From contig JAFGHI010000025.1 of assembly GCA_016930235.1 (NCBI GenBank), positions 16,437-80,436 of the forward strand: a stretch of 64,000 bases of DNA. The letters run 5' to 3'. This document shows positions 2,765-41,782 of the stretch, in pieces; within the stretch, counting starts at the first letter, position 1; the number at the start of each line of letters is the position of its first letter. The DNA is from Candidatus Omnitrophota bacterium (GTDB lineage: Bacteria > Omnitrophota > Omnitrophia > Omnitrophales > Aquincolibacteriaceae). The notes beneath the pieces were generated by a model. The model ran no database searches and was not told the DNA's origin. It was given only the letters and a program-made list of their open reading frames with translations. A program made the position numbers and the translations under genes.

Positions 2765-4294
2765 TCACACATGGTCCGATTGTAATTCATTTGAGTATTC
2801 ATATGTCTGTTGAATGTCGTCTTTCTTTTTTGTTTTTGGTTGATGCCTAAACAACATATCAATAATTTCTTGCACCAACGTACGATCGGCCCAATATAAA
2901 GTCAGAAGATAAACACTACCACCAACAGCAGATAAAATGGCTAATTTCAACGCGTAGAGTTCCCGCATAACGTTCATCTGCCCCATACCATACTTCGATA
3001 AAACAATTATGCTCGACATGGCTACGCATGCAATGAAAGTCGATTTAATTCGAATAACGAGTTCTCTCAGTCGGTAATCAACGATTCGTTTTACAAGATA
3101 GAGATTGATGGGTACAAAAATTAACGAAGTCAGAATCATAGCATAAACTGCACCCTCGGCACCCCACACATAGGCGAACCCGATTAAAACAGGCAATCGA
3201 AAAATAACACGGGCCAGATTTAATCGAAATTGATAGTCCGGCTTACCGCATCCCATAAATATTGGCCATGAACTTGCACCTAATGGACTAATGATCTGCA
3301 CAATTCCGAATAATTGCATGAGCGGGATCATCGGCACCCATTTCGCTCCATAAATAGTCAAAACAATCTCCTCTGCCGCCAGAATAATGAAAAAACTGAA
3401 CGGAAATGAAAGGCACGATATGAAACTGACGATTTTTAAAAAGGTCTTTCGAACCGTTGCAAGATTGTTCTGAATCGCAGCATAGGCGGGGAACATCACA
3501 CGGGAAATAAGCTGGGTGAAATGACTGTTAATAAAATTACCGATGTTGGACGCTAACGCAAAATACCCCAGAATAGTCGTCCCCAGCATTTTTCCGACTA
3601 CAATATTGTTCATGTTATCCATCACATAACTCAGAATCGAGAGCCCGACTATAAATTTGCCGAAACTAAATAATTCTTTAGCCGCTTTCTTCTCATATTG
3701 AAATTTGACACGATACCCTGAAGAGAAGAACAGCAAGATGACCATGACCACGCCCTTAATGATATAAGCCCACACCAGACTCCAAATTGTCGGCGATATT
3801 AATGCAAAGGAAATTGCACAAATGGAATTGACAAAAGAACTGGCAAGGCGAATAAACGAAATCGTCCGAAACTTCATCCTTCTTGTTAAAAGCGCCGAAG
3901 GTACTTTCCCAAAACTATTGATGACGAAAATGATACCCAACGCCTGGACCACAACGGTGACTTCAGGATTTCCGAAAAATTTACCGGCTAATGGTGCCAA
4001 CAGCATACACAAACTAAAAACAACAACGCCAAAAAATAAGATAACGGAGAATGCCGTGTGGTTGGCAATGTCACGACTGTCTTTGCGTTGAATGAGCCCT
4101 GAATCGATACCAAAACTCTGGAAGATCCCTAACCCATCAATCAAGATAAACGCCATAGCAAACAACCCAAAAACAGAAGGCTCAAGAATCCTCGCTAGAA
4201 TGGCAAAAGTCACCACCGACGACATCTTTTGAGTTATTTTGACAATCATCATCCACTTCACGCCCGATACAGCTTTTTGCTTAAGACCTTTCAT
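2765..4294 (-). CDS. Wzx-type oligosaccharide flippase (MOP/polysaccharide biosynthesis protein family)
   Basis: 509 aa, about 12-14 predicted hydrophobic helices, Wzx-like length and composition. It sits among GT genes. Confidence 0.75.
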   Translation of the reverse strand: MKGLKQKAVSGVKWMMIVKITQKMSSVVTFAILARILEPSVFGLFAMAFILIDGLGIFQSFGIDSGLIQRKDSRDIANHTAFSVILFFGVVVFSLCMLLAPLAGKFFGNPEVTVVVQALGIIFVINSFGKVPSALLTRRMKFRTISFIRLASSFVNSICAISFALISPTIWSLVWAYIIKGVVMVILLFFSSGYRVKFQYEKKAAKELFSFGKFIVGLSILSYVMDNMNNIVVGKMLGTTILGYFALASNIGNFINSHFTQLISRVMFPAYAAIQNNLATVRKTFLKIVSFISCLSFPFSFFIILAAEEIVLTIYGAKWVPMIPLMQLFGIVQIISPLGASSWPIFMGCGKPDYQFRLNLARVIFRLPVLIGFAYVWGAEGAVYAMILTSLIFVPINLYLVKRIVDYRLRELVIRIKSTFIACVAMSSIIVLSKYGMGQMNVMRELYALKLAILSAVGGSVYLLTLYWADRTLVQEIIDMLFRHQPKTKKKDDIQQTYEYSNELQSDHV

Positions 4295-4446
4295 GCGTTT
4301 AATCCTTTCATAATTCCATCATATTGAATTTATAAAAACCGTTTGTCATAATGCCCAATCACTGTGTCAAATAAACACAAAGTTTCCGCCGGCGGAAAAA
4401 TTCAAAAATATAAAGGCAACCTATACGAAAAAATAAGTTACCCCTT

Positions 4447-5478
4447 TCACCCCACGGTTACGACCTCGCACTGCTTTTTGTCTTCCTCTACAATCGCTGC
4501 TTTCGCCAGATCTCTTGAACCTTGATTGAATCCAACAAGATAAATGACAGCGCCCGTAACAGCCATTAACACCATCAAAGAATAATTGACGATCGAAAAC
4601 AAAAAAGCATTCTCCGGGAGTACCCCTACCAGCCCAAGGAAGTAAACAAATCCATTTTCCCGTATACCGATCCCATTGACTGTGATCGGAAGCATCGTAA
4701 GCGTTACGACCAGCATGGTCATTACCGAGACTGTCGCGAAACTCAAATCGAACCCGAAAGCCTTGGCAACTAAAAAATACCGAAGAAAAACAAACAACTG
4801 CATGACTAATGAAATCAGAAAAGCTTCCAAAATGACCCCATGCTGATTTCGATACGCCCGCAAAGTTTCAACGGCCTTTCCAATAACGGTAATCCTCTTC
4901 CCGAGTTTCTCAATCCACGCGCTTGAACTCATCAACCCATACCCTAAGATCATCGCTCCGATTAATAGAACGCTGAAAAACACCACATTCCCCCTCGATA
5001 TGTTAAAGATCTTCATCAGCGTGCCTGACAGCGATAAACAAATAGCCGCCAAAACCAGTATGGCCACTGTTCCAATGAGCCGGCCAATTAAGACGATGGT
5101 CATCGAACGCGTCTTGCCTACACCGTATTTGGACATCGAGTACGCCCGCACAAAATCACCGCCGATAATCGTCGGTAGAAAGTGACCGAAAAAATAACCG
5201 ATCATGTAACATTTCAGTGTATAGCGATATGGAACCTGAGCTCCGTTCGCGTGAAGAAGCCGCTTCCATCTCAGTGAATGCAAGGCAAACAGTCCCCACA
5301 TGGCAACATAGCCCGCAAAACACCATTCCCAGCGAATACTTTTAAAAACCTCTGTAAGATCCGCCCAATTCAGGTTGCGGATTAAAAACCCAATTAAAAT
5401 CAGGCTTATGCCGAGCTTTAATACCCATGAACGATGCCGAACTTTGTCTATCCACGCTTTTACCCCAGTCAAAATCAT
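4447..5478 (-). CDS. Flippase-like / lysylphosphatidylglycerol-synthase TM-region family (UPF0104) membrane protein
   Basis: 343 aa polytopic membrane protein. The N-terminus has RHRSWVLKLGISLILIGFLI...DL..V; this family is commonly paired with GT2 genes in EPS loci. Confidence 0.6.
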   Translation of the reverse strand: MILTGVKAWIDKVRHRSWVLKLGISLILIGFLIRNLNWADLTEVFKSIRWEWCFAGYVAMWGLFALHSLRWKRLLHANGAQVPYRYTLKCYMIGYFFGHFLPTIIGGDFVRAYSMSKYGVGKTRSMTIVLIGRLIGTVAILVLAAICLSLSGTLMKIFNISRGNVVFFSVLLIGAMILGYGLMSSSAWIEKLGKRITVIGKAVETLRAYRNQHGVILEAFLISLVMQLFVFLRYFLVAKAFGFDLSFATVSVMTMLVVTLTMLPITVNGIGIRENGFVYFLGLVGVLPENAFLFSIVNYSLMVLMAVTGAVIYLVGFNQGSRDLAKAAIVEEDKKQCEVVTVG

Positions 5479-5514
5479 TGATCGGAAACCTTCCTGGACA
5501 AATCCTCTACTTAA

Positions 5515-6327
5515 TCATGTCACCATAAATCCAAAGATAAAAATCGATGCCTGAACTGCGCGCACAAACGCTACGGACTCATGAATCTTAATCCTTTCCC
5601 GCATTTCAACCAAAGCGCTCACAACGGACCATATCGAAAAAACAATTGCGAGTTCAAAAAAGACCGGCTTTAAAAATGCCGGACTCATGAGAAACAAAAG
5701 GAAATCCTGAAACCCTTCAATATGGTGTATCGCCACCCCCAGACGCCCGACCTTTAAAAAAGGCAGTGAATATCCGTAAAGCTTCGAAGAAAAAGGCCAA
5801 AACAAAGGCACACCATAAGCGCTGAACATATCGAGAATCACGTGGGTGGAATAAGCCAAGAAGCTGAGAGCGAAGAGACGTAGCTCCTGTGACTTTTCTC
5901 GTATAAATTTTGAAATTCGAATCTCGAAACTCGAAACAAATCCGAATAAATCAAATCCTAATATCGAAACGGTTCTTTTGGAAGCAAGCCTATTCGCCAA
6001 ACTCCGGCATTTTTTATTATTGCCTTCTTCGGATTTCTGATTTGCTTCGAAATTCGGATTTCGGATTTCGGATTTAAGGCTCTTGACAAAGTGATATCCC
6101 CCTACAATCATGAAGGCTACGATGAAAGCAGCCGCCAGACTATGGGAAGGTCCTCGGTGAAACCGTGCTGCCTGTTGGATGAAAAGCCCGGGGAGAAAAT
6201 CAAAATCGGCTAGAGCGGCGAGCAGGACAAAAAAGAGAAGGTAGGGCCATCTCGTTTTCCGGTCCTTTTGTTTTGCAAAACAATAAACCGAATAACCCGC
6301 AAACGAATGTATCACCGGTAATGGCAT
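5515..6327 (-). CDS. DUF457/YdjM-type membrane-bound metal-dependent hydrolase carrying an in-frame ~190-nt repeat-element insertion
   Basis: HRGPSHSL and YSTHVILDMFSAYGVPLFWP match the YdjM motifs HRGFTHSL and YLSHILADM..GVPLLWP. The protein is 270 aa versus about 190 aa expected for the family. The extra ~63 residues (EIRNPNFEANQ...FIREKSQE) are encoded exactly by the family-1 repeat at 5883-6075. Confidence 0.7.
   Translation of the reverse strand: MPLPVIHSFAGYSVYCFAKQKDRKTRWPYLLFFVLLAALADFDFLPGLFIQQAARFHRGPSHSLAAAFIVAFMIVGGYHFVKSLKSEIRNPNFEANQKSEEGNNKKCRSLANRLASKRTVSILGFDLFGFVSSFEIRISKFIREKSQELRLFALSFLAYSTHVILDMFSAYGVPLFWPFSSKLYGYSLPFLKVGRLGVAIHHIEGFQDFLLFLMSPAFLKPVFFELAIVFSIWSVVSALVEMRERIKIHESVAFVRAVQASIFIFGFMVT
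5883..6075. mobile_element. Family-1 inverted-repeat miniature element, copy A, inserted in-frame inside the DUF457 gene
   Basis: Left arm gaaattcgaatctcgaaactcgaaacaaatccgaata... and right arm ...cttcgaaattcggatttcggatttcggattt are inverted copies of the cgaaat/tcggattt heptamer arrays seen at 6985, 8212, 10845 and 41617. Confidence 0.6.
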
Positions 6328-6333
6328 AGCGCA

Positions 6334-6792
6334 TCATACCCCCCGAAAAGGTTCGTGAGACGATGAACTCGTCCCGCTCAGAACCGGTGATTCGGAGAAA
6401 CGGCGAGACGGCGATTTAATGACCCACTTATCCGCACTTTCTATCATCATGACAATTTGACCCATGATACGATCCGTTTCCTCTTCAAGATGTTCTGCCT
6501 CTTCCTTTGTAATATAATTACATCTCCTTGCGATTTCAGACCATACTTGTGTTTCGCAAGCTTCTGTCTCAGCATCGCTGAGCTTACTTATGAATGCCGC
6601 TTTATACCGGCGCTTCCGCCAAGCTTCTGCCAAGTTTGAACAAACCGACCTCGAAGACCTTTTCATTTGATCCGTCAAAGAATATTTTTCCTCACTCGGA
6701 AATCTCTTCGTTATTCGAAATATTTCCATTGCCATATTCATTGCACGATCATAAACATTAAGCTCTTTATAACTCGATATTATCTTCCCCAT
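6334..6792 (-). CDS. Four-helix-bundle protein (TIGR02436, '23S rRNA intervening-sequence protein' family), copy 1
   Basis: LTDQMKRSSRSVCSNLAEAW matches the family core QLxRAAxSIxxNIAEG, and ETEACETQVWSEIARRCNYI matches the C-terminal helix. About 30 aa C-terminal extension. Its stop is 6 nt from the DUF457 start. Confidence 0.8.
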   Translation of the reverse strand: MGKIISSYKELNVYDRAMNMAMEIFRITKRFPSEEKYSLTDQMKRSSRSVCSNLAEAWRKRRYKAAFISKLSDAETEACETQVWSEIARRCNYITKEEAEHLEEETDRIMGQIVMMIESADKWVIKSPSRRFSESPVLSGTSSSSHEPFRGV

Positions 6793-6799
6793 CTCTTTT

Positions 6800-6960
6800 C
6801 CCGTTGCGCCGCTTCTCCGTCTCTCCGGCTCACCCGCTCTCGTCTCTCGCCCCTTGCCCCTGCTCTTTCACCGGTTCTTCGTTTCGCCTACCCCCGTCTC
6901 GTGTCTCTCGCCCCTTGCACCTGCTCTTGCCCCTGCCCCCTTAGGGAATCATTTCTTGAG
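6800..6960. repeat. CT-rich imperfect tandem direct repeat, two copies about 58 bp apart, core ctctcgccccttgc(c/a)cctgctctt
   Basis: Read directly: ccgctctcgtctctcgccccttgcccctgctctt at about 6832-6866 and ccgtctcgtgtctctcgccccttgcacctgctctt at about 6890-6925. Confidence 0.6.
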
Positions 6961-6984
6961 AACTAAGAACACGACCTCTTATAA

Positions 6985-7170
6985 ATCCGAATCCCGAAAT
7001 CCTAAGCACGAAACAAATTCGAATATCGAAATTCAAACAAAACCAAACTCTTCATTATCTTAAACACACATTGCATTTCTTTGCTTTTTTCTTTGCCGCA
7101 ATGTTTTATATTTATCTTTCTTATTTCTGATTTCGATATTGCTTCGGATTTCGATATTCGTATTTCGAAT
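6985..7170. mobile_element. Family-1 miniature element, copy B (arms plus about 90-bp spacer; internal-deletion derivative)
   Basis: Left arm atccgaatcccgaaatcctaagcacgaaacaaattcgaatatcgaaattcaaacaaaacc and right arm ttatttctgatttcgatattgcttcggatttcgatattcgtatttcgaattt. The spacer reverse complement reads ttgcggcaaagaaaaaagcaaag..., a degraded 4HB start (MAA.KK..). The right end abuts the BY-kinase stop codon at 7171. Confidence 0.6.
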
Positions 7171-8157
7171 TTACAGCCTTTGTTCCGTGTTCTTAGTCCT
7201 TTCTTTCTTCAGCACTGCCTTTTCCCACCAGCCCTGGAACCGCTCTTCCATATCCTTCAAATTAAAGCCGGCCCGCTTAAAATGATAATGAGCACGGTTG
7301 CGGCCCTCATCACTATATTCATCGTAATAGTTGTAATAGCGGTAGTCGGGCGATGAAAACTCCACATTGGTAAGAACATAACCAAGCATCTTGGCCCCGG
7401 CCTGTTTGAATAAAACCTGGGCATGAGAAATGACACTCTTGGGCGTCCTTCCGACCTGGATCACGAATAAAACACCATCCACCTCTTTGCCCAAGATTCC
7501 GGCATCCGCCACGGACATGATCGGAGGCGAATCAATGATGATGTAATCAAAGTGATGACGAAGTTCCCGTATGAAATACTGCAGCTTTGAAGAGCTCACA
7601 AGTTCGGCGGATTTCCGGGTCGCTTCCCCTCTCGGGATAATCACAAGATTCTTTAAGGAATTCTTGCACATAACCTGCTTTGGATTCAAATCCTCACGAA
7701 GCAGCTCAGTCAGTCCCTTCTTCTTGTCACCAAAACCCATATAATCGGAAATGTTCCCGCGTCTCAAGTCGGCATCAATCAAGGCCACTCGCGCTTCGCC
7801 GTTCTCGGCCAGAGAAAGAGCCAAGTTTGTCGCGGTCACCGTCTTCCCCTCTGAGTGAATGGAACTGGAAACGAGAATCACTTGTGCCTGCTGTTTCGTC
7901 AGCTGCGCCTTCAAGGAGGTGCGAAACATCCTGTATTGCTCGGCCAGCATGGAGTCCGGAAACCTTAGCATGATCAACCGACTGTCCGGGTTTGTATTTT
8001 TAATTGTCGTAATCCCACGCTCAAAAGATGAAACATTGTCAACGGCTTCATCTTCATGTGCCGGAAGTCGCAACCCCGGACTGCCATCAGAACCAGCGGC
8101 TTTCGCCTGGTCCCTTTCCTCTTGTAGTTTTTCAAGTGCTTTCGTGTATTTACTCAT
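7171..8157 (-). CDS. BY-family protein tyrosine kinase (CpsD/EpsG-like cytoplasmic ATPase, separate from the co-polymerase)
   Basis: Walker A HSEGKT, Walker A' ALIDADLRRG, Walker B DYIIIDSPP, and a C-terminal tyrosine cluster YRYYNYYDEY. 328 aa. Confidence 0.85.
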   Translation of the reverse strand: MSKYTKALEKLQEERDQAKAAGSDGSPGLRLPAHEDEAVDNVSSFERGITTIKNTNPDSRLIMLRFPDSMLAEQYRMFRTSLKAQLTKQQAQVILVSSSIHSEGKTVTATNLALSLAENGEARVALIDADLRRGNISDYMGFGDKKKGLTELLREDLNPKQVMCKNSLKNLVIIPRGEATRKSAELVSSSKLQYFIRELRHHFDYIIIDSPPIMSVADAGILGKEVDGVLFVIQVGRTPKSVISHAQVLFKQAGAKMLGYVLTNVEFSSPDYRYYNYYDEYSDEGRNRAHYHFKRAGFNLKDMEERFQGWWEKAVLKKERTKNTEQRL

Positions 8158-8211
8158 TTTGGTATGTCTCCTTTATTCCTTTATGATAACTATTTGCTAT
8201 AACTAAACTCG

Positions 8212-8748
8212 TTAAATACGAATCTCGAAACTCGAAATCCGAAACAAATTCGAATATCGAAATACAAATAAAACAAATAACACTAAAACAATACTCGCTT
8301 GTTCCTTCAGATTGACTTTCGTACAATAGAACCGAAAATGTTCATCAATTCCGTCGATTCTTGAATCAATGACTGCACTTCTTTTTCTAAACCGTTCGTA
8401 CAAACGCCCTCCAAAAGTCGAAGCCAATAACGGCTTTCTTTTGCCTCTTTCCTGCAGATCGTGATACGCATGCCAAAATCTTTTTTCCCTAACGACTCGT
8501 TGGCTTCGATATAGTTTGCGCCAACAGAGCCGGAGGCCCTCAATAACTGTCGCATATCATCCTGCACAATCCAGGACTTGTTCGCCTTCGATAATAGATC
8601 GCGCACTTGTACGGCAAATTTATAAGTCCGTTCCTCTAAATCGTATTTCTTTTCTTTTTTATCCGCTGCCATAACGATTTCGTTTTCTCTTTCTTATTTC
8701 GAATTTCGAAATTCCTTCGGATTTCGTGATTCGGATTTCGTATTTTCT
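8212..8748. mobile_element. Family-1 composite element, copy C: inverted heptamer-repeat arms flanking an intact four-helix-bundle gene
   Basis: Left arm 8212-8285 (cgaatctcgaaactcgaaatccgaaacaaattcgaatatcgaaatacaaataaaac) and right arm 8690-8748 (ttatttcgaatttcgaaattccttcggatttcgtgattcggatttcg) are inverted relative to each other and enclose ORF 8307..8672. Confidence 0.6.
8307..8672 (-). CDS. Four-helix-bundle protein (TIGR02436 family), copy 2, carried inside the family-1 element
   Basis: 121 aa. DDMRQLLRASGSVGANYIEANE and KDFGMRITICRKEAKESRYWLRLL match the family's two conserved helices. Confidence 0.85.
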   Translation of the reverse strand: MAADKKEKKYDLEERTYKFAVQVRDLLSKANKSWIVQDDMRQLLRASGSVGANYIEANESLGKKDFGMRITICRKEAKESRYWLRLLEGVCTNGLEKEVQSLIQESTELMNIFGSIVRKSI

Positions 8749-8767
8749 GCTGTTGCGCCTACTTCGG

Positions 8768-9586
8768 TTATCCGTGTCGAATCGTCGTCATGGCATCGCG
8801 TACGATCGCCTCATCGATTTTCTTGGTTTCGGCGATATAGCCCGCCAGGAGCGAATGATCACACAGATTATTAATCACTCGCGGGATCCCTTTGGTGAAT
8901 TCATAAATCAATCGATAAGATCCTTCCGGAAAAAGCCCCGAATAATCTTCGCCGTTGAGCTTGGCATGGTTTAAGCGATGGACGATGTAATTCTTCGTGT
9001 CTTCCGGACTTAACGCATTCAGATGATACTGAATCGATATCCTTTGTTTTAACTGGGCCAAACTCGACAACTCAAGCTTTCTTCGCAGTTCCGGCTGGCC
9101 CAACAAGATAATTTGGATCAATTTCTCCTTTTCGGTCTCTAAGTTTGAGAGCATTCTTACCTCTTCGAGGCAGGCCGGGCTCAGGTTCTGTGCTTCGTCG
9201 ATCATGAGAACCACATTCTGGTCGGAAGCCATCTGCTCTAAAAGATAATTATTGAGCTGAATCAGTAACTTATCTTTTGAACCATTCCGGTAATGGATGC
9301 CCAAATCTTCCATGATGAGCGTCAGAATACCTTTCGGACTTATCGTCGTATTGGTCACCAGCGCTGTTTTTACATCGCGGTCCAACTTCCGTAAAAGCGT
9401 CCGTGCAATGGTTGTTTTACCGGCACCCACTTCGCCGGTAATCACCACAAAACCCTTTCGCTGCCGAATCGCAAAGAGAAGCGCATCCAGGGCCGTTTTA
9501 TGTCCCAAGGATTCAAAGAAAAAACCTGAATCGGGCGTCTGGTTGAATGGATTTTCCTTAAATCCAAAAAATTTGTTATACACCAC
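8768..9586 (-). CDS. ExeA-like AAA ATPase (putative secretion ATPase of the EPS/PEP-CTERM locus type)
   Basis: 272 aa. P-loop VITGEVGAGKTTIARTLL, and DEAQNL as the Walker B region. Its position between the co-polymerase and the BY-kinase matches the known PEP-CTERM-locus arrangement. Confidence 0.75.
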   Translation of the reverse strand: MVYNKFFGFKENPFNQTPDSGFFFESLGHKTALDALLFAIRQRKGFVVITGEVGAGKTTIARTLLRKLDRDVKTALVTNTTISPKGILTLIMEDLGIHYRNGSKDKLLIQLNNYLLEQMASDQNVVLMIDEAQNLSPACLEEVRMLSNLETEKEKLIQIILLGQPELRRKLELSSLAQLKQRISIQYHLNALSPEDTKNYIVHRLNHAKLNGEDYSGLFPEGSYRLIYEFTKGIPRVINNLCDHSLLAGYIAETKKIDEAIVRDAMTTIRHG

Positions 9587-10790
9587 TTCCGGCCTTTAAC
9601 CTTTCTCCGAGAATCAGTTCCTCGGGACGAATCGTTGCGATCGCTCCGAAAATCGGAAGATCGAGTAGATTTCTCGCCTCTTCCAGATTCCGGATCGAGT
9701 TATCGCTCAGTTCGATCAGGTAAATGATGATGAGCCCCAAGGCCACTCCGACAATCAAGCCGCCGATAAAAAAGAGTGTCTTATTGGGTTTGACGGGCTC
9801 GAGCGGCAGCCTCGCCGGTTCCAAAATCCTGAATTTTGTCCCGCTTTCCGAATCTTCCAGCGTCTGGGACATTTTTGCCGTCTCCAGTTTCTGTAAAAGC
9901 CTTTGATAGATCTCGGCATTGACCGCATAATTTCTCTGCAGTTTCGCCAATTGCTGTTCCTGATAGGGCACGCTCGAGACCATTTTAGCGTATTGTTCGG
10001 GCTTGATTTCCAAGCCTTGGACTTCAGCCTGCGCCAAGAAAGCATCGCGCTGCTGTTCCAACTGGCCGATCATATTACGGACCTGAATCACACGCGGATG
10101 GGCCTCGGTGTTATCCACCAGCAGCTGATTCAATTCCATTTTTAAAGCCACAAGCTGTTCGTTCAGTCTCGTCGCAATCGGCAGCGAGGACATATACACC
10201 TCACGAAACTCCCGGAGGGCATTTTCGGATTCCTCAAGCTTCACCCGGTAAGTTTCGAGTTGATCGTCAATGAAACGAATCGCGCTGTTTGCTTCAAGAT
10301 CCGCAGAGGTAATATTCCCCCCAATAATGATGTCGGCCAGCGTCTTCACAATCAGTTGGGCCTTTTTCGGGTCCGGGCCCTCGTAGGAGATCGTAATCAT
10401 GTCCGCCCCGCGGAGTTTGATATCAATCTTCTTTCTAAGATTCCGAATAAGCCGATCCCTCTGGATGGGCGTAATTGCCTTCTTATCCAACACTAATTTC
10501 TCAATCAGCAAAGTCAGCCGCTCCCAAGATAAAAGTTCCTCCCGAAGCGTACTCATCCTTGCCCTCATCGAGGGTGAAATCGCAAGCCCGCGAATCAAAG
10601 GGTTCAAAATAGTCTCGCTTTCAACCAGGAGGACGGTCTCAGCCCTATAAATTTTGGGCAGCGTAAAAGCCATCAAAAGCGCAATGACGACCGATACAAT
10701 CAGGGCACCAAAAAACCACCCTTTATGCCGGACCCCCATGTAGTAATATTCCCTCAATCTTAATGTTTGTGTCATGTTGTTTAGATTCAT
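9576..10790 (-). CDS. Polysaccharide co-polymerase (Wzz/chain-length determinant, PCP family)
   Basis: 404 aa. N-terminal TM followed by the Wzz motif (PKIYRAETVLLVE), a long coiled-coil periplasmic region, and a C-terminal TM LFFIGGLIVGVALGLIIIYLIE. Confidence 0.8.
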   Translation of the reverse strand: MNLNNMTQTLRLREYYYMGVRHKGWFFGALIVSVVIALLMAFTLPKIYRAETVLLVESETILNPLIRGLAISPSMRARMSTLREELLSWERLTLLIEKLVLDKKAITPIQRDRLIRNLRKKIDIKLRGADMITISYEGPDPKKAQLIVKTLADIIIGGNITSADLEANSAIRFIDDQLETYRVKLEESENALREFREVYMSSLPIATRLNEQLVALKMELNQLLVDNTEAHPRVIQVRNMIGQLEQQRDAFLAQAEVQGLEIKPEQYAKMVSSVPYQEQQLAKLQRNYAVNAEIYQRLLQKLETAKMSQTLEDSESGTKFRILEPARLPLEPVKPNKTLFFIGGLIVGVALGLIIIYLIELSDNSIRNLEEARNLLDLPIFGAIATIRPEELILGERLKAGSGV

Positions 10791-10844
10791 GTGTTATCTA
10801 TCTCCTTAATTATGATTTCATATATTCATAAAAACTAAGCTTAA

Positions 10845-11040
10845 TAAATTCGAAATGCGAAACACGAAATCCGAAACAAATTCAAATATCGAAATTCAAA
10901 TAAAACCGAACGCTTCATTTCCTTAAATACAAACCGTATTACCTTCTTTTTTATCCACCGCCATATCGTTTTATACTTTTTCTTTTTTATTTCTAATTTC
11001 GAATTTGTTTCGTGCTTCGAAATTCGAATTTCGGATTTTC
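10845..11040. mobile_element. Family-1 miniature element, copy D (deletion derivative), directly adjacent to 4HB copy 3
   Basis: Arms cgaaatgcgaaacacgaaatccgaaacaaattcaaatatcgaaattcaaataaaacc and ttatttctaatttcgaatttgtttcgtgcttcgaaattcgaatttcggatttt. The spacer reverse complement reads ATG GCG GTG GAT AAA AAA GAA GGT... (MAVDKKEG), almost identical to the MAADKKEKK start of 4HB copy 2, then stops. Confidence 0.6.
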
Positions 11041-11064
11041 ATGAACGCGGTACGCGGTCCATGC

Positions 11065-11502
11065 TCAGTGTGTCAACGCACCCTTCCAATCCGAGTGGAG
11101 CTGGGAATAAATACAATAGTTTTCATGTAAACGATGAATGCGCTTGGACAATTCCTGATAGCCTCGAGTAAGCTGATCATATTCGGTTTTTTCGATATAC
11201 CCGCAGTTCAAGGCCAGACCTAAGCACACCAGAACATGATTGGCCGCACCGCACGCGTCTCTTAAATGTCTGCGAAGGACGGTTTCACGACGTCTTTTCG
11301 CCCAGCCTTCGGCGATATGGGCAGAAACACGCCTCGAACTATTCAAAGTTTGACTAAAAAGCGTGTGCCTTTCATAGTCTGGAAATTTCCGGACACATTT
11401 AAATATCTGGCCGGCCAAAGTCATACTGATTTTGTAACTTTCCAAATCCTCGAACCCGCCGATTTCCATCTCCGATGTCAATTCACTTTCACTCGTCATC
11501 AT
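11065..11502 (-). CDS. Four-helix-bundle protein (TIGR02436 family), copy 3
   Basis: 145 aa. FSQTLNSSRRVSAHIAEGW and LRDACGAANHVLVCLGLALNCGYI match the family helices. It is more divergent than copies 1 and 2. Confidence 0.75.
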   Translation of the reverse strand: MMTSESELTSEMEIGGFEDLESYKISMTLAGQIFKCVRKFPDYERHTLFSQTLNSSRRVSAHIAEGWAKRRRETVLRRHLRDACGAANHVLVCLGLALNCGYIEKTEYDQLTRGYQELSKRIHRLHENYCIYSQLHSDWKGALTH

Positions 11503-11719
11503 TTCGATTACCCCTCAATCATGTTCCAAAGATTTAAGACAACCCGAAAGACCAGCTTGCCGCCCATTACAATAAGTGGCCAGATGATGAGATTACTATA
11601 GGCTCTCAAGATTGCTTCCCGGCCTCTCTTTAAACTATTCTTCTTTTTCATCGTCTTCCTTTTTCTTCTTGATTCGTTATTAGGCGCTGAAATTCTCTTC
11701 TGCTCCGGAAACGCATCAA

Positions 11720-12757
11720 TTAATCTCCCTTTAAATACCCGTCCTGGCCTCCATAAGCCAATTCGTAAACAGCCGAGGCCTGGAACAGCGGCCCGACCAA
11801 TCTTGAAAAGTTGTTCACAAACTTATCGAAATAACGCTGGTGAACAACAATAGTATCGCCGGGCATCAGCATGAAATCGTTCGCCGAATCCCCTTTGTAG
11901 AGCAATTCTTTTAAATTCACTTTCTTTTTCTCGGCTTCCCCGCTCTCGGTATACTGAGAAGGCCTTATCACATAAACCCGCTTCAAAGCCCCGTCATAAG
12001 TCGGCAGACCTGCCGCCACAACGGCCTCTTTCACCGTGATATTGTCACCCTTCATGGCAAATTTTCCGGGACGATTGACATATCCGAAGATATAGACGGC
12101 TTTACTCCGGTATTCGGAGATCATCACGGCCACTTCGGGATACCGGACAAACTTCTTGAGAGCGCTGACGACATCTGCCTTGAGTTCTTCCTTGGTCTTC
12201 CCTTCGGCCTTAATGTCACCCACAAAGTTGTATTGAATATTTCCCTCCGGATCGATCACAAATCGGCCAGAAAAGTCAGGCTGGTTGCGGACAATGACCG
12301 TCACGACATCATCAATCCCAAGGGTGTAATCAGATCCCTCCCCGATGACTTCGATATAGGGCGAATATTTTGAATAGGGCGAAACTTCAGAGGCCATAAA
12401 AGGATCCTGGTTGGCTGTCTGCTGACCCGGCGGCGGCGGTGTATATTGCGGCTGCCCCATGAATTGATATTGGGCCGACAAATTCCCCTGAGTGTAGGGA
12501 GAATTCATAAAGCTCGCGTATGGGGAAAATTGCGTTGAATAATTGGTACTGTAATTAACCGGCATCACATTCGAATACCCCGGTTGAGTATTCTGGGTCT
12601 GCATCTGTGACGGATCGTTTTCTCCCATATAGAGAAGATCCTCCGCAAAAACAGGGGCCGACAGGATGAATGCGATAAAAACTCCCAAAATGGCGATTTT
12701 AAATATTTTGCTTTGTGATTTCATTTCTTCTTTCCTAACCTTTCGATAATTTTTCAA
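11720..12757 (-). CDS. Polysaccharide export protein (Wza-like; Poly_export plus SLBB domains) with a ~90-aa Q/Y/P/S/N-rich low-complexity insert
   Basis: 345 aa. Signal peptide, then a low-complexity stretch PSQMQTQNTQPGYSNVMPVNYSTNYSTQFSPYASFMNSPYTQGN...YTPPPPGQQ, then a Wza-like core (GDI..EGKTKEELKADVVSALKKF...VAVMISEYRSKAVYIFGYVNRPG...PGDTIVV). Confidence 0.8.
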   Translation of the reverse strand: MKNYRKVRKEEMKSQSKIFKIAILGVFIAFILSAPVFAEDLLYMGENDPSQMQTQNTQPGYSNVMPVNYSTNYSTQFSPYASFMNSPYTQGNLSAQYQFMGQPQYTPPPPGQQTANQDPFMASEVSPYSKYSPYIEVIGEGSDYTLGIDDVVTVIVRNQPDFSGRFVIDPEGNIQYNFVGDIKAEGKTKEELKADVVSALKKFVRYPEVAVMISEYRSKAVYIFGYVNRPGKFAMKGDNITVKEAVVAAGLPTYDGALKRVYVIRPSQYTESGEAEKKKVNLKELLYKGDSANDFMLMPGDTIVVHQRYFDKFVNNFSRLVGPLFQASAVYELAYGGQDGYLKGD

Positions 12758-12960
12758 GACTCATAAACCGTGCTCACGATCTGCTGAAGGGCCTCGAGAT
12801 CTTCTTCCAGATAGATCCGCCAGCCTTTCCAGTCGCGCTTCGGTTTGCGTATTCTTCCGGCCTTTTCCCACCGAATGATGGTTTTGGCCGTGACGCCGAC
12901 TTTCTCGGCAACCTCAGTTATTGTCATTCTCTCTTCAATCACGCTCGTTTCCTCCATCAA
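12754..12960 (-). CDS. Small excisionase/MerR-type HTH DNA-binding protein (putative locus regulator)
   Basis: 68 aa. MTITEVAEKVGVTAKTIIRWEKAGRI is a helix-turn-helix of the excisionase-family DNA-binding domain type. It is the first gene of the export operon. Confidence 0.6.
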   Translation of the reverse strand: MMEETSVIEERMTITEVAEKVGVTAKTIIRWEKAGRIRKPKRDWKGWRIYLEEDLEALQQIVSTVYES

Positions 12961-13296: not shown

Positions 13297-14847
13297 ATGA
13301 ATCATAGCGTTCCATTTTTTCACGCCACATTTCAAAATGGGAAAACCATTACTCGCGGTATTTCCCATTGTAATTTAGGTCATAAAATTCCCATCGGTAC
13401 TGACCGCATAGATGGGATATACGTCGACTGGAATTGGGATGGTCAAAGACTAGAAGTCAAAAATGACCTATATGGATTTTATCCGCTTTATGTTTACCAT
13501 GATCAAAACGAGATATGCATCTCGCCATCGATTGTCAAATTGCTCGCCGAAGGCGCAAAACGGGATCTTAATTGGCCTGCCCTGGGCGTTTTTATGCGGG
13601 CGGGATTTTTCATTAAAGACGATACCCCCTTCCGCTACATCCGCGCATTGCCACCAAATGCCAAATTTCTTTGGGGAAATGGCAAACTCAAAATTTCTGG
13701 ATCTTACACTCTAAGGGATGAAAATAAGCTGACTCTTTCTCAAGCCTTAGACGACTACATTGATCTTTTCCGGCAAGCCATAAAGCGAAGATTACCCCGA
13801 AACCGCGAGTGTTTTCTACCATTAAGCGGAGGCCGGGATTCGCGGCATATACTTTTTGAACTTCTAAAAAACGGCATTCGACCTCAATCATGCATTACTG
13901 TCGAACATTACACGCAGGGCTCTAATGAAGATGCGCGCATCGCCCAACTGCTAGCGTCAACATTCAGCCTAAAACACATTTTGCTCCGGCAAACCGTTCC
14001 TTTTTTTAATTCAGAGTACAGGAAAAATTTTCTTACGAATATGTGCACGGATGAACACACGCATTTCTTAATCATGGCGGACATACTCGCCAACTCTAAC
14101 CACGCTATCTACGATGGCATCGGAGGCGATATCTTGACCTCAAGTCGGACGCTTTCAAACACGATTCTACAACTATTCCGTTCAAGAAATTTCAGGGAAT
14201 TATCTAATCTCATTTTTCGATGCGACGAAAACCTTTTAAAATGGCTGCTGAGAAGAAATATCTACTCAAAGATGAATCGTGAATCAGCTATCGAGTACCT
14301 CACGACAGAGCTTGAGCAGCATACGGATGTTCCAAATCCCCCCGGATCGTTTTATTTCTGGAATCGCACACGAAGAGAAATTTCACTTTCCAGCTATGCC
14401 CTCTGCGGTTTTAACTCGCTCATTCATATGCCTTATATTGATTATGATCTTTTCAATTTCTTGGCCGGGATACCTACTTCTTTGCTTCTCAACCAAGATT
14501 TTCATACACGCGCCATTAGCCGCGCTTTTCCTGAATTCGATAACATTCCCTACCAGGATAAAACCGTTAAAGATGTTGACCGCGAAAGTCTCCAGGATCG
14601 GTTTTTCTATGACGTCCTGGCCTATTTGATGCGATATCCATTTTATAAGACTGAGATGCTCCAACTTGAGTCCTTAATCCCTCGATGCCTTCACGCGTTG
14701 ATCAGCCCTTCCAAACGACGCGACAGCATATGGTTTACAAAACCATTACTCTATCTCCTGCAGCTTGAAGAGTTGGCGACGAAACCGGCAGTGATTTCCA
14801 ACGCCTTACGAATCGTTGAGCGCCGAGATACCGTCAAGACAACTTGA
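13297..14847 (+). CDS. Asparagine-synthetase-family (PP-loop ATP pyrophosphatase) protein lacking the N-terminal Cys glutaminase nucleophile; putative sugar amidotransferase
   Basis: 516 aa. PP-loop FLPLSGGRDSRHI. The start is MNHS, not the Met-Cys of class-II GATase. One of only two plus-strand genes. Confidence 0.7.
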   Translation: MNHSVPFFHATFQNGKTITRGISHCNLGHKIPIGTDRIDGIYVDWNWDGQRLEVKNDLYGFYPLYVYHDQNEICISPSIVKLLAEGAKRDLNWPALGVFMRAGFFIKDDTPFRYIRALPPNAKFLWGNGKLKISGSYTLRDENKLTLSQALDDYIDLFRQAIKRRLPRNRECFLPLSGGRDSRHILFELLKNGIRPQSCITVEHYTQGSNEDARIAQLLASTFSLKHILLRQTVPFFNSEYRKNFLTNMCTDEHTHFLIMADILANSNHAIYDGIGGDILTSSRTLSNTILQLFRSRNFRELSNLIFRCDENLLKWLLRRNIYSKMNRESAIEYLTTELEQHTDVPNPPGSFYFWNRTRREISLSSYALCGFNSLIHMPYIDYDLFNFLAGIPTSLLLNQDFHTRAISRAFPEFDNIPYQDKTVKDVDRESLQDRFFYDVLAYLMRYPFYKTEMLQLESLIPRCLHALISPSKRRDSIWFTKPLLYLLQLEELATKPAVISNALRIVERRDTVKTT

Positions 14848-17536: not shown

Positions 17537-17812
17537 GATTTGCGATTTTGGATTTTAGATTTTGGATTGCGGATTGCCCGTTTGGGCGAAAATCCGAAGT
17601 ATGAAGTTCGAGGTACGAAGTAAGAGGTAAGATGTATGAAATTTCGGATTTGGGATTTTGGATTTTAGATTTTGGATTGCGGATTGCCCGTTTGGGCGAA
17701 TTTAACCCCTCACCCTTTCCCTCTCCCCTTTGGGGAGAGGGCAGAGATGAGGTGATAAATTTGCCTAAGCGTATAATCGAAAATCCAAAATCCGCACTCC
17801 CAAATCTAAAAT
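17537..17812. repeat. Family-2 miniature element, copy E: left arm duplicated in tandem, with internal palindrome ccctctcccctttggggagaggg
   Basis: gattttggattttagattttggattgcggattgcccgtttgggcgaa occurs twice (17547-17592 and 17655-17700). The right arm at about 17776-17812 (tcgaaaatccaaaatccgcactcccaaatctaaaatgg) is inverted. A segment gaagtatgaagttcgaggtacgaagtaagaggtaag is shared with 19888-20008. Confidence 0.6.
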
Positions 17813-19887: not shown

Positions 19888-20008
19888 CCTCGAAGTATGA
19901 AAATTCCTACTTCCCGCCTCTTACTTCGTACTTCCTACCTCATACTTCCGGCTTCCTACTTCTTACCTCTTACTTCCGACTTCTTACTTCATACTTCCTA
20001 TTTCCTGC
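19888..20008. repeat. Family-2-related tandem array of tacttc(g/c)tacttcct(a/t)cct units filling the fmt-def intergenic space
   Basis: The 19888-20008 sequence is tacttcccgcctcttacttcgtacttcctacctcatacttccggcttcctacttcttacctcttacttccgacttcttacttcatacttcc. It is the reverse complement of the gaagtatgaag/gaagtacgaagta segments in family-2 arms. Confidence 0.55.
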
Positions 20009-22659: not shown

Positions 22660-22901
22660 ATTTTAGATTTCGGATTGCGGAATGCGGATTGCCCGCTTAG
22701 GCAAAAATCCGAAGTATGAAGTATGAAATGTGAAAAAAGATGAATCGTAAGTAAATGAGTCCATAGCGACTATTTTTTCGCTTTTCTCTCCTACCGCGCA
22801 CATCATATTTTTTACGTCATATTCCATGCGTCCTTCATACTTCATACCTCGTACCTCATATTTCTTTATTCAATCCAAAATCCGAATTCCAAAATCCAAA
22901 A
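22660..22901. mobile_element. Family-2 miniature inverted-repeat element, copy I, between priA and the UDG gene
   Basis: The left arm ttttagatttcggattgcggaatgcggattgcccgcttaggcaaaaatccgaagtatgaagtatg and the right arm catacttcatacctcgtacctcata...caatccaaaatccgaattccaaaatccaaaat are inverted copies. The right end abuts the UDG stop codon (22902). The 60-aa ORF inside it is probably spurious. Confidence 0.55.
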
Positions 22902-23645
22902 TTAGAGTTTCACATCGCCCAAGTTATCCATTTCCCCCTTGATCTTTTTCATATCCTCCCAGACCTTACGCTTCTCCCCGGGATTGCGCAAAAGATAAGC
23001 CGGATGGTACGTGCAAAGAACCGGAATCCCGCGGTAGTCGTGGAATCTTCCCCGCATTTGAGAAATGGACGAGCCCGTTTTGAGAAGGGCTTGTGCGGCA
23101 AATGTTCCTAAGGCACAGATGATTTTGGGTTGAATCAAATCAATGGTCCCGCTCAAAAAAGGTTCGCAATTTAAAATTTCTTCCGGCTTGGGGGTGCGGT
23201 TTCCGGGCGGACGGCAGCGCAGGCAATTCGCTATAAAAACATCCGAACGCTTGAGCCCGATCGATTCGATAATCTTCGTCAAAAGCTGTCCGGCTTTTCC
23301 CACAAAGGGCAGCCCTTGAATATCCTCATCACGGCCGGGCGCTTCCCCGACGAACATTAATTTAGCTTGAACATTGCCCGCCCCAAAAACGACTTTGTTG
23401 CGCGTCGACGCTAATTCTTCACAAGCGGTACATTTCAAGGCTTGTTCACGCAAATCGATCAGTTTTTCTCGAACACTTTTGGCTTCCGTTGAGGATTTTA
23501 CCCGAACCGGTCCGGCATCGGCTCGAACGGCTACAGGCTTCGATGCGGGGGCAAGGTAAACCTCCTCAATCCCATCCTCTTTCAGCATTTGCATAAAAAG
23601 CTTGGCTTCCGAGGTCTTAAGCGCTGTCTCCTGACTCGGGTTCAT
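22902..23645 (-). CDS. Uracil-DNA glycosylase, family 4, with an N-terminal extension
   Basis: GEAPGRDEDIQGLPFVGKAG (the family-4 GEAPG motif) and a C-terminal HPAYLLR-type segment. 4-nt overlap with the upstream GT28 gene. Confidence 0.8.
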   Translation of the reverse strand: MNPSQETALKTSEAKLFMQMLKEDGIEEVYLAPASKPVAVRADAGPVRVKSSTEAKSVREKLIDLREQALKCTACEELASTRNKVVFGAGNVQAKLMFVGEAPGRDEDIQGLPFVGKAGQLLTKIIESIGLKRSDVFIANCLRCRPPGNRTPKPEEILNCEPFLSGTIDLIQPKIICALGTFAAQALLKTGSSISQMRGRFHDYRGIPVLCTYHPAYLLRNPGEKRKVWEDMKKIKGEMDNLGDVKL

Positions 23646-27244: not shown

Positions 27245-27390
27245 CTCCTTCGTAACAGACCAAAGACCGAAGACTCAAGACAACAGACCGAATTCTAAAA
27301 AAATACCTTCATATTCAACTTTTTTAAACCCATTTAAATCTTTCTCACCAAAGTTTTTGGTCTTTAGTCTTTGGTCTCCAGTCTTCGGTC
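27245..27390. mobile_element. Family-3 miniature inverted-repeat element (gaccgaa/ttcggtc heptamer arms)
   Basis: Left arm cagaccaaagaccgaagactcaagacaacagaccgaa (27257-27293) and right arm tttggtctttagtctttggtctccagtcttcggtcttc (27350-27387) are inverted, with a spacer of about 57 bp. The element fills the gap between two genes. Confidence 0.55.
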
Positions 27391-27394
27391 TTCA

Positions 27395-41616: not shown

Positions 41617-41782
41617 AAAATCCGAATCTCGAATTTCGAAGCACAAAACAAATACGAATATCGAAATTCAAATAAGGCAAACAAAAGATCTGTGTCCTAT
41701 GCCCTTCGTACCTTGTTTTTTTCTTTCCTATTTCGAATTTTGATATTTCTTCGAATTTCGGGATTCGCGCTTCGGATTTCCC
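41617..41782. mobile_element. Family-1 miniature element, copy G (35 kb away from the other copies)
   Basis: Arms aaaatccgaatctcgaatttcgaagcacaaaacaaatacgaatatcgaaattcaaataagg and ctatttcgaattttgatatttcttcgaatttcgggattcgcgcttcggattt. It abuts the methyltransferase stop at 41788. Confidence 0.55.

Follow-up and report, generated by a model that had tools for sequence, protein, structure and literature searches.

Four-helix-bundle genes in an exopolysaccharide operon of an Omnitrophota bacterium as probable hairpin cassettes of the intervening-sequence type

Why should three strongly diverged genes for four-helix-bundle (4HB) proteins lie close together in the gaps of a single operon, among palindromic heptamer repeats? 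This question is raised by a stretch of 64,000 nucleotides from a Candidatus Omnitrophota bacterium (GenBank assembly GCA_016930235.1, contig JAFGHI010000025.1, positions 16,437 to 80,436 of the forward strand), which is called the window here and supplies all coordinates given without a locus number. A first-pass annotation had located the genes and the repeats, had treated the repeats as elements in their own right, and had proposed either that the elements insert preferentially next to existing copies or that the 4HB proteins act on them. Our results point to another arrangement, which we consider probable: the locus would be an exopolysaccharide (EPS) operon that holds several promoterless 4HB cassettes of the kind known from rRNA intervening sequences (IVSs), each bracketed by inverted arms, together with deletion derivatives of such cassettes, all of them transcribed by read-through and processed at their hairpins.

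Results

A 4HB gene enclosed by heptamer arms

The second of the three genes, copy 2 (8307-8672, minus strand; 121 amino acids (aa)), lies inside element C (8212-8746, minus strand), an intact cassette made up of a 5′ arm, the 4HB open reading frame (ORF) and a 3′ arm. Read in the sense direction, the 5′ arm (8686-8745, minus strand) is an array of AAATNCG heptamers and the 3′ arm (8213-8273, minus strand) an array of CGNATTT heptamers. The arms are 80% complementary over 51 nt and are matched by the arm profile with E-values of ~5e-13 and ~5e-11, and both strands of the element fold into long hairpins. A search of the window with the arm profile found ten arms, which form five palindromic elements (family 1) in one shared orientation, and four of the five are interspersed with the three 4HB genes. 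Element D (10844-11040, minus strand) retains both arms, the leader, the ATG and ~12 codons of a copy-2-type cassette. Its interior aligns with the leader and ORF start of element C with a score of 46, compared to 18.3 ± 2.8 (maximum 34) for shuffled sequences, and the aligned letters read ATGGCGGTGGATAAAAAAG-AAGG in D and ATGGCAGCGGATAAAAAAGAAAAG in C. Element B (6981-7173, minus strand) has no ORF and is a sister to D, the interiors of the two being homologous over their whole length (alignment score 41). On the evidence of these alignments, element D is evidently an internally deleted cassette and so, through its homology to D, is element B. As D still has the beginning of the ORF, and B shares its ancestry with D, the change evidently ran from full-length to short. 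The earlier view of the arms as a separate element family beside the 4HB genes gave way to one in which the arms are the cassette termini, and D and B deleted cassettes. The stop codon TAA of the tyrosine-autokinase gene (7171-7173) is formed by the first three bases of element B (TAAATTCG...), and in several other loci, too, the TAA at the end of the 5′ arm is so placed that it could terminate the upstream gene.

All three 4HB proteins belong to the family of the 23S rRNA IVS protein S23p (PF05635, TIGR02436; curated cut-offs 33.8 and 24 bits). Copy 1 (6334-6792, minus strand; 152 aa) matched PF05635 with an E-value of 3e-32 and 111.4 bits and TIGR02436 with 105.5 bits, copy 2 with 4e-11, 43.5 bits and 61.0 bits, and copy 3 (11065-11502, minus strand; 145 aa) with 5e-19, 69.1 bits and 59.1 bits. 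These matches confirm the three genes where the first-pass annotation had placed them. A profile built from copies 1-3 detected no fourth 4HB ORF within the 64 kb; a second copy (P0002), 84% identical to copy 2, lies on the source contig beyond the window.

Copy-2-type cassettes in other genomes

A scan of one genome per GTDB species returned more than 593 relatives of copy 2, and the best 80 were examined as loci. These 80 came from Gammaproteobacteria, 'Deltaproteobacteria', Planctomycetota, Verrucomicrobiota, Patescibacteria (candidate phyla radiation, CPR), Chloroflexota, Bacteroidota, Nitrospirota, Omnitrophota and WOR-3. Relatives bearing arms of CGAAAT heptamers are 53-65% identical to copy 2 and are spread over more than a dozen bacterial phyla; those with 63-65% identity lie, in unrelated metagenomes, between groEL and dnaJ or just after rnc, co-directional with these genes and with the same arms. 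Flanking inverted repeats were significant in ~70 of the 80 genome-scan loci. In an arm-profile census of 90 copy-2-type loci, both family-1 arms were present in 61, one arm in 21 and none in 8, the last being mostly a CTAAAT variant that escapes the profile. The first-pass annotation had made its link between 4HB genes and family-1 repeats depend on whether the two occur together beyond this locus, and the link held.

The compact cassettes are mostly ~461-476 nt long, with 474 nt the commonest length and a minority longer, and their ends read TAAAT...ATTTA. They begin a few nt past the upstream stop codon and finish 5-20 nt ahead of the next start codon. In 38 of 65 loci, the inner 5′ arm takes in the ATG and the first eight codons (MTKIQNSK...). 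The arm period is 7 in 55 of 55 copy-2-type loci, and the protein has 33 invariant columns. Taken together, these comparisons show that the copy-2-type cassette has the family-1 arms as its termini in many phyla.

Arm pairs without an ORF, and arms repeated in tandem, were also found within 3 kb of cassettes in other genomes. In a Cyclobacteriaceae genome, the cassette is followed downstream by runs of as many as 11 family-1 arms in tandem (L080:3662-4251), and extra arms occur at L090 and L069 as well. At one groEL-dnaJ locus (L005:3067-4431), the arms also enclose, upstream of the 4HB gene, a 229-aa ORF that matches no Pfam family and may be extra cargo. In three samples the cassette lies immediately 3′ of the RNase III gene rnc (L008-L010:3247-4360).

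Orientation, context and horizontal movement

The cassettes stand in sense orientation inside co-directional gene strings. For the copy-2 type, the upstream neighbour is on the same strand in 67 loci and on the opposite strand in 7, and the downstream neighbour in 61 and 9; the corresponding counts for the copy-1 type, described below, are 61 and 7 upstream and 54 and 10 downstream. Where extra 4HB genes were found near the index genes, 10 of 10 were co-oriented with the index gene. The upstream neighbours themselves are diverse (54 families over 67 loci), and some cassettes stand between genes for two subunits of a single enzyme, leuC|leuD and V-ATPase B|D among them. In the leuC|leuD gap, a recurrent site, the identity of the 4HB proteins is uncorrelated with that of LeuC (rho 0.02): the Kiritimatiellota and planctomycete copies are 66-71% identical in the 4HB protein and ~40% identical in LeuC. 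The phylogeny of the cassettes is thus unlike that of the host genes, which indicates that the cassettes move horizontally. Taken together, these results indicate that the cassettes are horizontally mobile, that they probably depend on host transcription, and that they have accumulated here in what may be a permissive operon.

Spread by phages or plasmids was considered as a route and rejected, as no copy-2-type relatives were found in IMG/VR or among GenBank phages, and those on plasmids are cyanobacterial only, with an identity of at most 41%. The TAAAT...ATTTA ends fit a TA duplication, but they are palindromic themselves. Under a uniform model, the probability of finding the three 4HB genes inside 5.2 kb is ~0.018, that of finding four of the five family-1 elements inside 5.1 kb is ~0.009, and that of six of the seven units (4HB genes plus elements) being clustered is ~1e-4. 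Preferential insertion beside existing copies, as suggested by the first-pass annotation, fits this clustering and also the extra arms and 4HB genes near cassettes elsewhere; a permissive operon is the alternative.

Copy 1, copy 3 and other arm motifs

Copy 1 has a C-terminal extension, as had been noticed before: it is 152 aa long compared to typically 126 aa in its relatives, and its last ~26 codons run into the 3′ arm. The tail (SPSRRFSESPVLSG...) recurs in a few relatives, with similar SP..R..SE.P tails, a consequence of the ORF running on into this arm. Copy 1's 5′ arm region (6793-6960, minus strand) holds an array that is G-rich in the sense strand and has an 8-nt period (period 8 at 6814-6841 by Tandem Repeats Finder). 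A 61-nt direct duplication, with 36-nt cores that are 86% identical, lies at 6837-6933 in the same region. The 3′ arm (6380-6413, minus strand), inside the extended ORF, is an inverted match to 6807-6840; this match is weak, with a score of 28 compared to 16.3 ± 2.3 (maximum 27) for shuffles. The arms are clearer in the relatives. In a sample of 80 metagenomic copy-1-type loci, 77 of which were scored for arms, flanking arms were significant in ~50, with arrays such as GACGCGGG or GAAACGGA, and the arm period was 8 in 28 of 30 loci. To judge from these arrays, copy 1 evidently has an arm family of its own. The earlier statement that only copy 2 lies inside arms is therefore right for the family-1 arms and does not extend to copy 1, which has its own 8-nt-period arms.

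Copy 3 is rare and divergent. Its best relative is 44% identical, only 49 matches with E≤1e-10 were found among 1.8 billion representatives, and a word-indexed search returned no match besides copy 3 itself. Arms of yet other motifs accompany additional divergent 4HB genes of the fetched loci. Annotated plasmid 4HB genes of the cultured Nostoc punctiforme and N. flagelliforme have inverted heptamer arrays of GTCGGAG and AATTCAA alongside (scores 58 and 62 versus ~18 ± 2.3), and those of Bernardetia and Anabaena plasmids have repeats that are direct or muddled, not clean inverted arms. Among the plasmid 4HB genes, one has cas2 and cas1 as its neighbours, both on the strand opposite to it, and another adjoins tnsA and xisH/xisI; the loci are L172 (Anabaena cylindrica pANACY.01) and L173 (Nostoc punctiforme pNPUN01). 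A paper from 2013 that deals with catalogues of cas genes is said to mention 23S_rRNA_IVP as well.

Pairing and evolution of the arms

In the copy-1 type, the complementarity of an arm to the other arm of its own element scored 35.8, compared to 23.1 for the arms of other elements, and none of 5000 permutations reached 35.8. The own arm was the best partner of all in 15 of 71 loci. In the copy-2 type, the CGAAAT heptamer switched to CTAAAT in at least six protein lineages, in both arms each time. When the CG/CT sites of the two arms were aligned, there were 138 G-C pairs, 43 T-A pairs and 20 discordant ones (Spearman 0.59). Within elements that mix CG and CT, covariation by position was tested on few cases: 19 of 27 sites matched compared to 16.1 expected, a value reached by 436 of 2000 permutations.

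Several candidate explanations for the arm types were tried and rejected. No tie of arm type to a protein clade or a specificity residue was found, and avoidance of CpG or TCGA by the host was unsupported as a source of the CT-type arms (p 0.84 and 0.23). The idea that the number of repeats matches a pentamer was dropped, as the strictly periodic stretch covers only ~3-4 units. Complementarity and periodicity of the arms are preserved features, with which selection on RNA, selection on DNA and regeneration by a mobility mechanism are all compatible.

Fold of the 4HB protein

In the AlphaFold2 (AF2) monomer model, copy 2 folds as a four-helix bundle, with a predicted local distance difference test (pLDDT) score of 87.6 and helices at residues 13-29, 34-59, 63-88 and 96-120. 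With this model as query, the top Foldseek matches were 2rld (template modelling (TM) score 0.73-0.82) and 2gsc, each of which has five chains per entry, followed by Avd alone and Avd in the ribonucleoprotein of a diversity-generating retroelement (DGR). Avd forms a basic, pentameric barrel; it binds an RNA stem-loop, and the RNA on which it acts has distal flanks that pair across the cargo. By homology to this RNA-binding protein, it is plausible that the 4HB protein binds the arm arrays. Since the CG-to-CT switches occurred without a correlated change in the protein, base-specific co-evolution of protein and arms is not favoured.

The host operon and the remaining elements

The host operon (2765-12757, minus strand) comprises wza, an XrtA-type chain-length determinant, a PEP-CTERM ATPase, the tyrosine autokinase, ydjM, an LPG-synthase-TM gene and wzx. 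The cassettes and 4HB genes of the window are housed in the intercistronic gaps of this XrtA/PEP-CTERM EPS operon, which belongs to an Omnitrophota metagenome-assembled genome. The spatial relations described in the first-pass annotation were reproduced: copy 1 lies just left of element B (188 nt apart), copy 3 lies just right of element D (24 nt apart), and 6 nt separate the stop codon of copy 1 from the YdjM (DUF457) start. An independent Logan contig recovers the order wza, 47-aa ORF and copy 3 and ends within element D. The 47-aa ORF, between wza and copy 3 (11508-11651), is without a family match and is called as a gene in the Logan contig too. Promoter and terminator signals in the operon region showed no excess over shuffled sequences. 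No Rfam family matched at E≤1 over 5-12 kb or at its gathering score anywhere in the window, and there is no rRNA in the window. A defence system was also considered and set aside, as PADLOC gave no match.

The two other family-1 elements are short palindromes. Element A (5905-6076, minus strand) lies in frame within the YdjM ORF (5515-6327), to which it adds ~57 residues without a stop, so that the ORF stays continuous; with element A, the YdjM Pfam match stretches 225 residues over 159 profile positions. Element E (41618-41779, minus strand) is found in an intergenic gap of the minus strand at a distance of 30 kb from the cluster; it has the same orientation as elements A-D and no 4HB gene nearby.

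Other intergenic arrays or palindromes of 7-nt period occur in the window at 17539-17812, 19904-20006, 22666-22902 and 27257-27394. All of them are ORF-less, and their motifs are GATTTTG/GATTGCG, GAAGTAT/TTCCTAC (a single array of 14.7 units) and AGACCAA. These arrays may be relics of further 4HB-cassette subfamilies; the fetched loci yielded nothing decisive on a tie between these heptamer families and 4HB genes.

Discussion

If the locus is, as seems probable, an EPS operon with several IVS-type 4HB cassettes and their deletion derivatives, the following course of events can be proposed. A cassette would be transcribed by read-through from the host operon, and in the polycistronic RNA its arms would pair into an imperfect duplex of 50-60 bp, which would hide the 4HB start codon. 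RNase III would cut this duplex as it does in rRNA IVSs, and the cut would free the flanking cistrons intact, so that insertions would be tolerated. The 4HB pentamer, homologous to the RNA-binding Avd, would bind the arms or arrays and would serve the maintenance or spread of the element.

Several results weigh against this proposal. The preference for the own arm seen in the copy-1 type is lacking in the copy-2 type when complementarity is computed over profile columns (0.707 for own arms versus 0.707 for other arms), and in a local alignment of the CG type it is slight (44.7 versus 41.7, the former attained in 147 of 5000 permutations). Since the copy-2 arms lie near one cross-phylum consensus, this consensus, and not compensatory change in situ, explains their pairing. 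Mismatches compatible with G-U pairing number 184 in the sense and 177 in the antisense strand for the copy-2 type, and 57 and 55 for the copy-1 type; the wobble test, being symmetric between the strands, neither supports nor refutes pairing at the RNA level. No protein residue was found that correlates with the CG-to-CT switch. Around copy 3, no flanking inverted repeat was detected in the window, and in the interiors of elements A and E the interior alignment found no ORF remnant, leaving arms only. Neither an empty site nor a target-site duplication, which would prove mobility directly, could be established, and we know of no catalytic motif for DNA transposition in 4HB proteins. In addition, the protein of the Coxiella IVS is apparently not produced (PMC4990558).

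Two rival explanations deserve to be weighed, and we regard each of them as unlikely. According to the first, the heptamer palindromes came before the genes: they would be non-autonomous MITEs (miniature inverted-repeat transposable elements) of an unlinked transposase, and the 4HB ORFs would be captured passengers or preferred landing neighbours. That the cassette has no transposase gene agrees with this explanation, as do the arms-only elements A and E, the arm pairs without an ORF and the tandem arms that other genomes have close to cassettes, and the other ORF-less heptamer palindromes of the window with their different motifs. However, it is the 4HB-bearing form that is conserved across phyla, with a mostly uniform length and a start codon embedded in the arm, and the ORF start kept in D together with the homology of B to D points to a change from full-length to short. 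Each 4HB subfamily also has its own arm motif and period, which random capture would not predict.

According to the second, which we think no better supported by the odds, the cassettes are a domesticated regulatory module of the host: a 4HB oligomer would bind the mRNA arrays in a TRAP-like manner, and would govern how the downstream cistron is processed or translated or how stable it is, and the cassette would be kept for the good it does the host. The strict sense orientation inside operons speaks for such a role, and so do the end of the 3′ arm 5-20 nt ahead of the next start codon, the strong conservation of the protein with its 33 invariant columns, the fit of short-period arrays to a ring-shaped oligomer (2rld and 2gsc, five chains), and the binding of RNA by Avd. 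However, the host operons are unrelated to one another (chaperones, leucine synthesis, V-ATPase, hydrogenase, EPS), the phylogeny of the cassettes does not track that of the host genes, many copies that have decayed and lack an ORF are still present, and this one operon holds several cassettes of different subfamilies.

A local duplication, in which the three 4HB genes would be diverged tandem paralogs with repeats nearby by chance, is very improbable. The genes do lie on the same strand within 5.2 kb, but tandem duplication was rejected since the pairwise identities are too low (24% between copies 1 and 2, 35% between copies 1 and 3, undetectable between copies 2 and 3); moreover, copy 1 and copy 2 are each 60-72% identical to genes in other phyla, and they fall into separate subfamilies with unlike arm types. 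Hardly credible at all is the view of the 4HB genes as DGR accessory (Avd) genes, which an Avd-like fold and weak matches of copy 1 alone would suggest, since these matches stay under the cut-offs (PF22296, bAvd, 30.2 bits, cut-off 40; NCBIfam NF033474, 30.1 bits, cut-off 80), the ORFs scanned over 2765-12960 (a range that does not include the 516-aa ORF at 13297-14847) contain no reverse transcriptase and all have EPS or membrane functions or a MerR-type helix-turn-helix, and the repeat search found no template/variable repeat pair.

Beyond this locus, the cassette reading can be extended to a general proposal, which we put forward as a possibility and would not yet bet on. PF05635 4HB genes in general would be the single gene of an unrecognised class of transposase-less hairpin elements that reside in transcribed gaps, with the rRNA IVS as the case that was noticed first. 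The pentamer would recognise its own arrays and drive maintenance or spread, and ORF-less heptamer palindromes would be non-autonomous relics. If this is true, the relics would include the other heptamer families of the window, the cyanobacterial STRR-type repeats and the Xanthomonas GGGAATC pairs. The rRNA IVS with its S23p ORF has been known for ~30 years with the origin of the insertion and the role of the protein lacking an explanation, and the heptamer arrays of cyanobacteria and xanthomonads equally lack one. The ORF-in-hairpin architecture is common outside rRNA in more than a dozen phyla, with subfamily-specific arm motifs and decayed ORF-less derivatives. Three separate puzzles would thus become one testable object, with thousands of natural variants to define what the arms require and with tractable hosts in Nostoc punctiforme, Xanthomonas campestris (XCC0516) and Bacteroides thetaiotaomicron (BT_0352). 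There is also a warning for annotation: operon-borne genes called 'four helix bundle protein' are probably insertions and not members of the pathway, and odd peptide tails like that of copy 1 would be translated arms.

Comparison with known systems

The closest parallel is the rRNA IVS. S23p/PF05635 proteins are encoded in the rRNA IVSs of Coxiella burnetii, Leptospira, Xanthomonas and Brucella (PMC4990558), and S23p-type ORFs occur in rRNA insertions of CPR bacteria too. The IVS in the Coxiella 23S rRNA is 428 nt long, holds an S23p ORF, and has a 28-bp terminal stem and tandem GACAGAT heptamers, at the first repeat of which RNase III cuts (PMC4990558). The cassettes share with such IVSs a protein of the same family in the loop, terminal inverted repeats able to form a long stem, tandem heptamers 5′ of the ORF, a sense ORF without its own promoter in a host transcript, decay of the ORF, and the approximate size (428-444 nt compared to ~461-476 nt here). 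The terminal inverted repeats around the ORF are present at copy 2, weak at copy 1 though clear in its relatives, and lacking at copy 3; the tandem repeats 5′ of the ORF have a period of 7 in the copy-2 type and 8 in the copy-1 type. In contrast to rRNA IVSs, which sit in helix 25 or 45 of the 23S rRNA, the cassettes here sit in gaps of protein operons and once in frame within a gene. Since protein genes flank them, and not 23S or 16S rRNA, they are not strict members of the rRNA-IVS class. Their arms, unlike those of rRNA IVSs, are almost wholly periodic arrays with subfamily-specific motifs, and they occur in many copies that have spread horizontally across phyla. Excision by RNase III has been reported for the Coxiella IVS, whereas the cassettes here are known from their sequence. 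No description of non-rRNA 4HB cassettes with array arms was found in the searchable literature, the coverage of which is incomplete, so that a prior description is possible.

Intergenic heptamers have been described as GGGAATC in Xanthomonas, often in convergent inverted pairs, of which X. campestris has 70-75, and as GGGGA(C/T)T and STRR-type repeats in Nostoc and Anabaena (PMC4692102); a search of that text found neither 'S23' nor 'intervening'. Like the arms here, the Xanthomonas and Nostoc repeats are 7-nt arrays in intergenic regions of operons, often in inverted pairs, and they occur in taxa rich in S23p/4HB genes. The DGR protein Avd (PDB 4DWL, 8UB7) shares a homologous four-helix-bundle fold with the 4HB proteins of the window, but the reverse transcriptase and the template/variable repeats that belong to a DGR were not seen at this locus, among the ORFs scanned over 2765-12960 and in the repeat search, respectively. 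Like integron cassettes, the 4HB cassettes carry a single ORF and no promoter, have an imperfect palindromic site, and point the same way as the host transcript. However, an integron cassette has one attC, an IntI and an attI array, whereas here there are two inverted arms, scattered in unrelated or housekeeping operons, and Pfam and NCBIfam scans found no integrase among the neighbours.

Transcribed bacterial MITEs include the Correia elements of Neisseria, the hairpins of which are RNase III substrates, the enterobacterial ERIC/IRU and the Rickettsia palindromic elements. Elements A, B, D and E resemble them as palindromes of 160-200 nt in transcribed intergenic gaps with a fixed orientation, and element A occupies an in-frame position in a coding sequence, a placement also known from Rickettsia palindromic elements. 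The four ORF-less elements among the five of the window thus have the general traits of MITEs, being short, multi-copy and transposase-less with terminal inverted repeats. MITEs, however, derive by internal deletion from an autonomous parent that encodes a transposase; the parent of elements D and B encodes a 4HB protein and no recognisable transposase, and the arms are arrays of 7-8 nt period. By analogy with these systems, the 4HB cassette appears to work like an IVS, and its short forms resemble transcribed MITEs.

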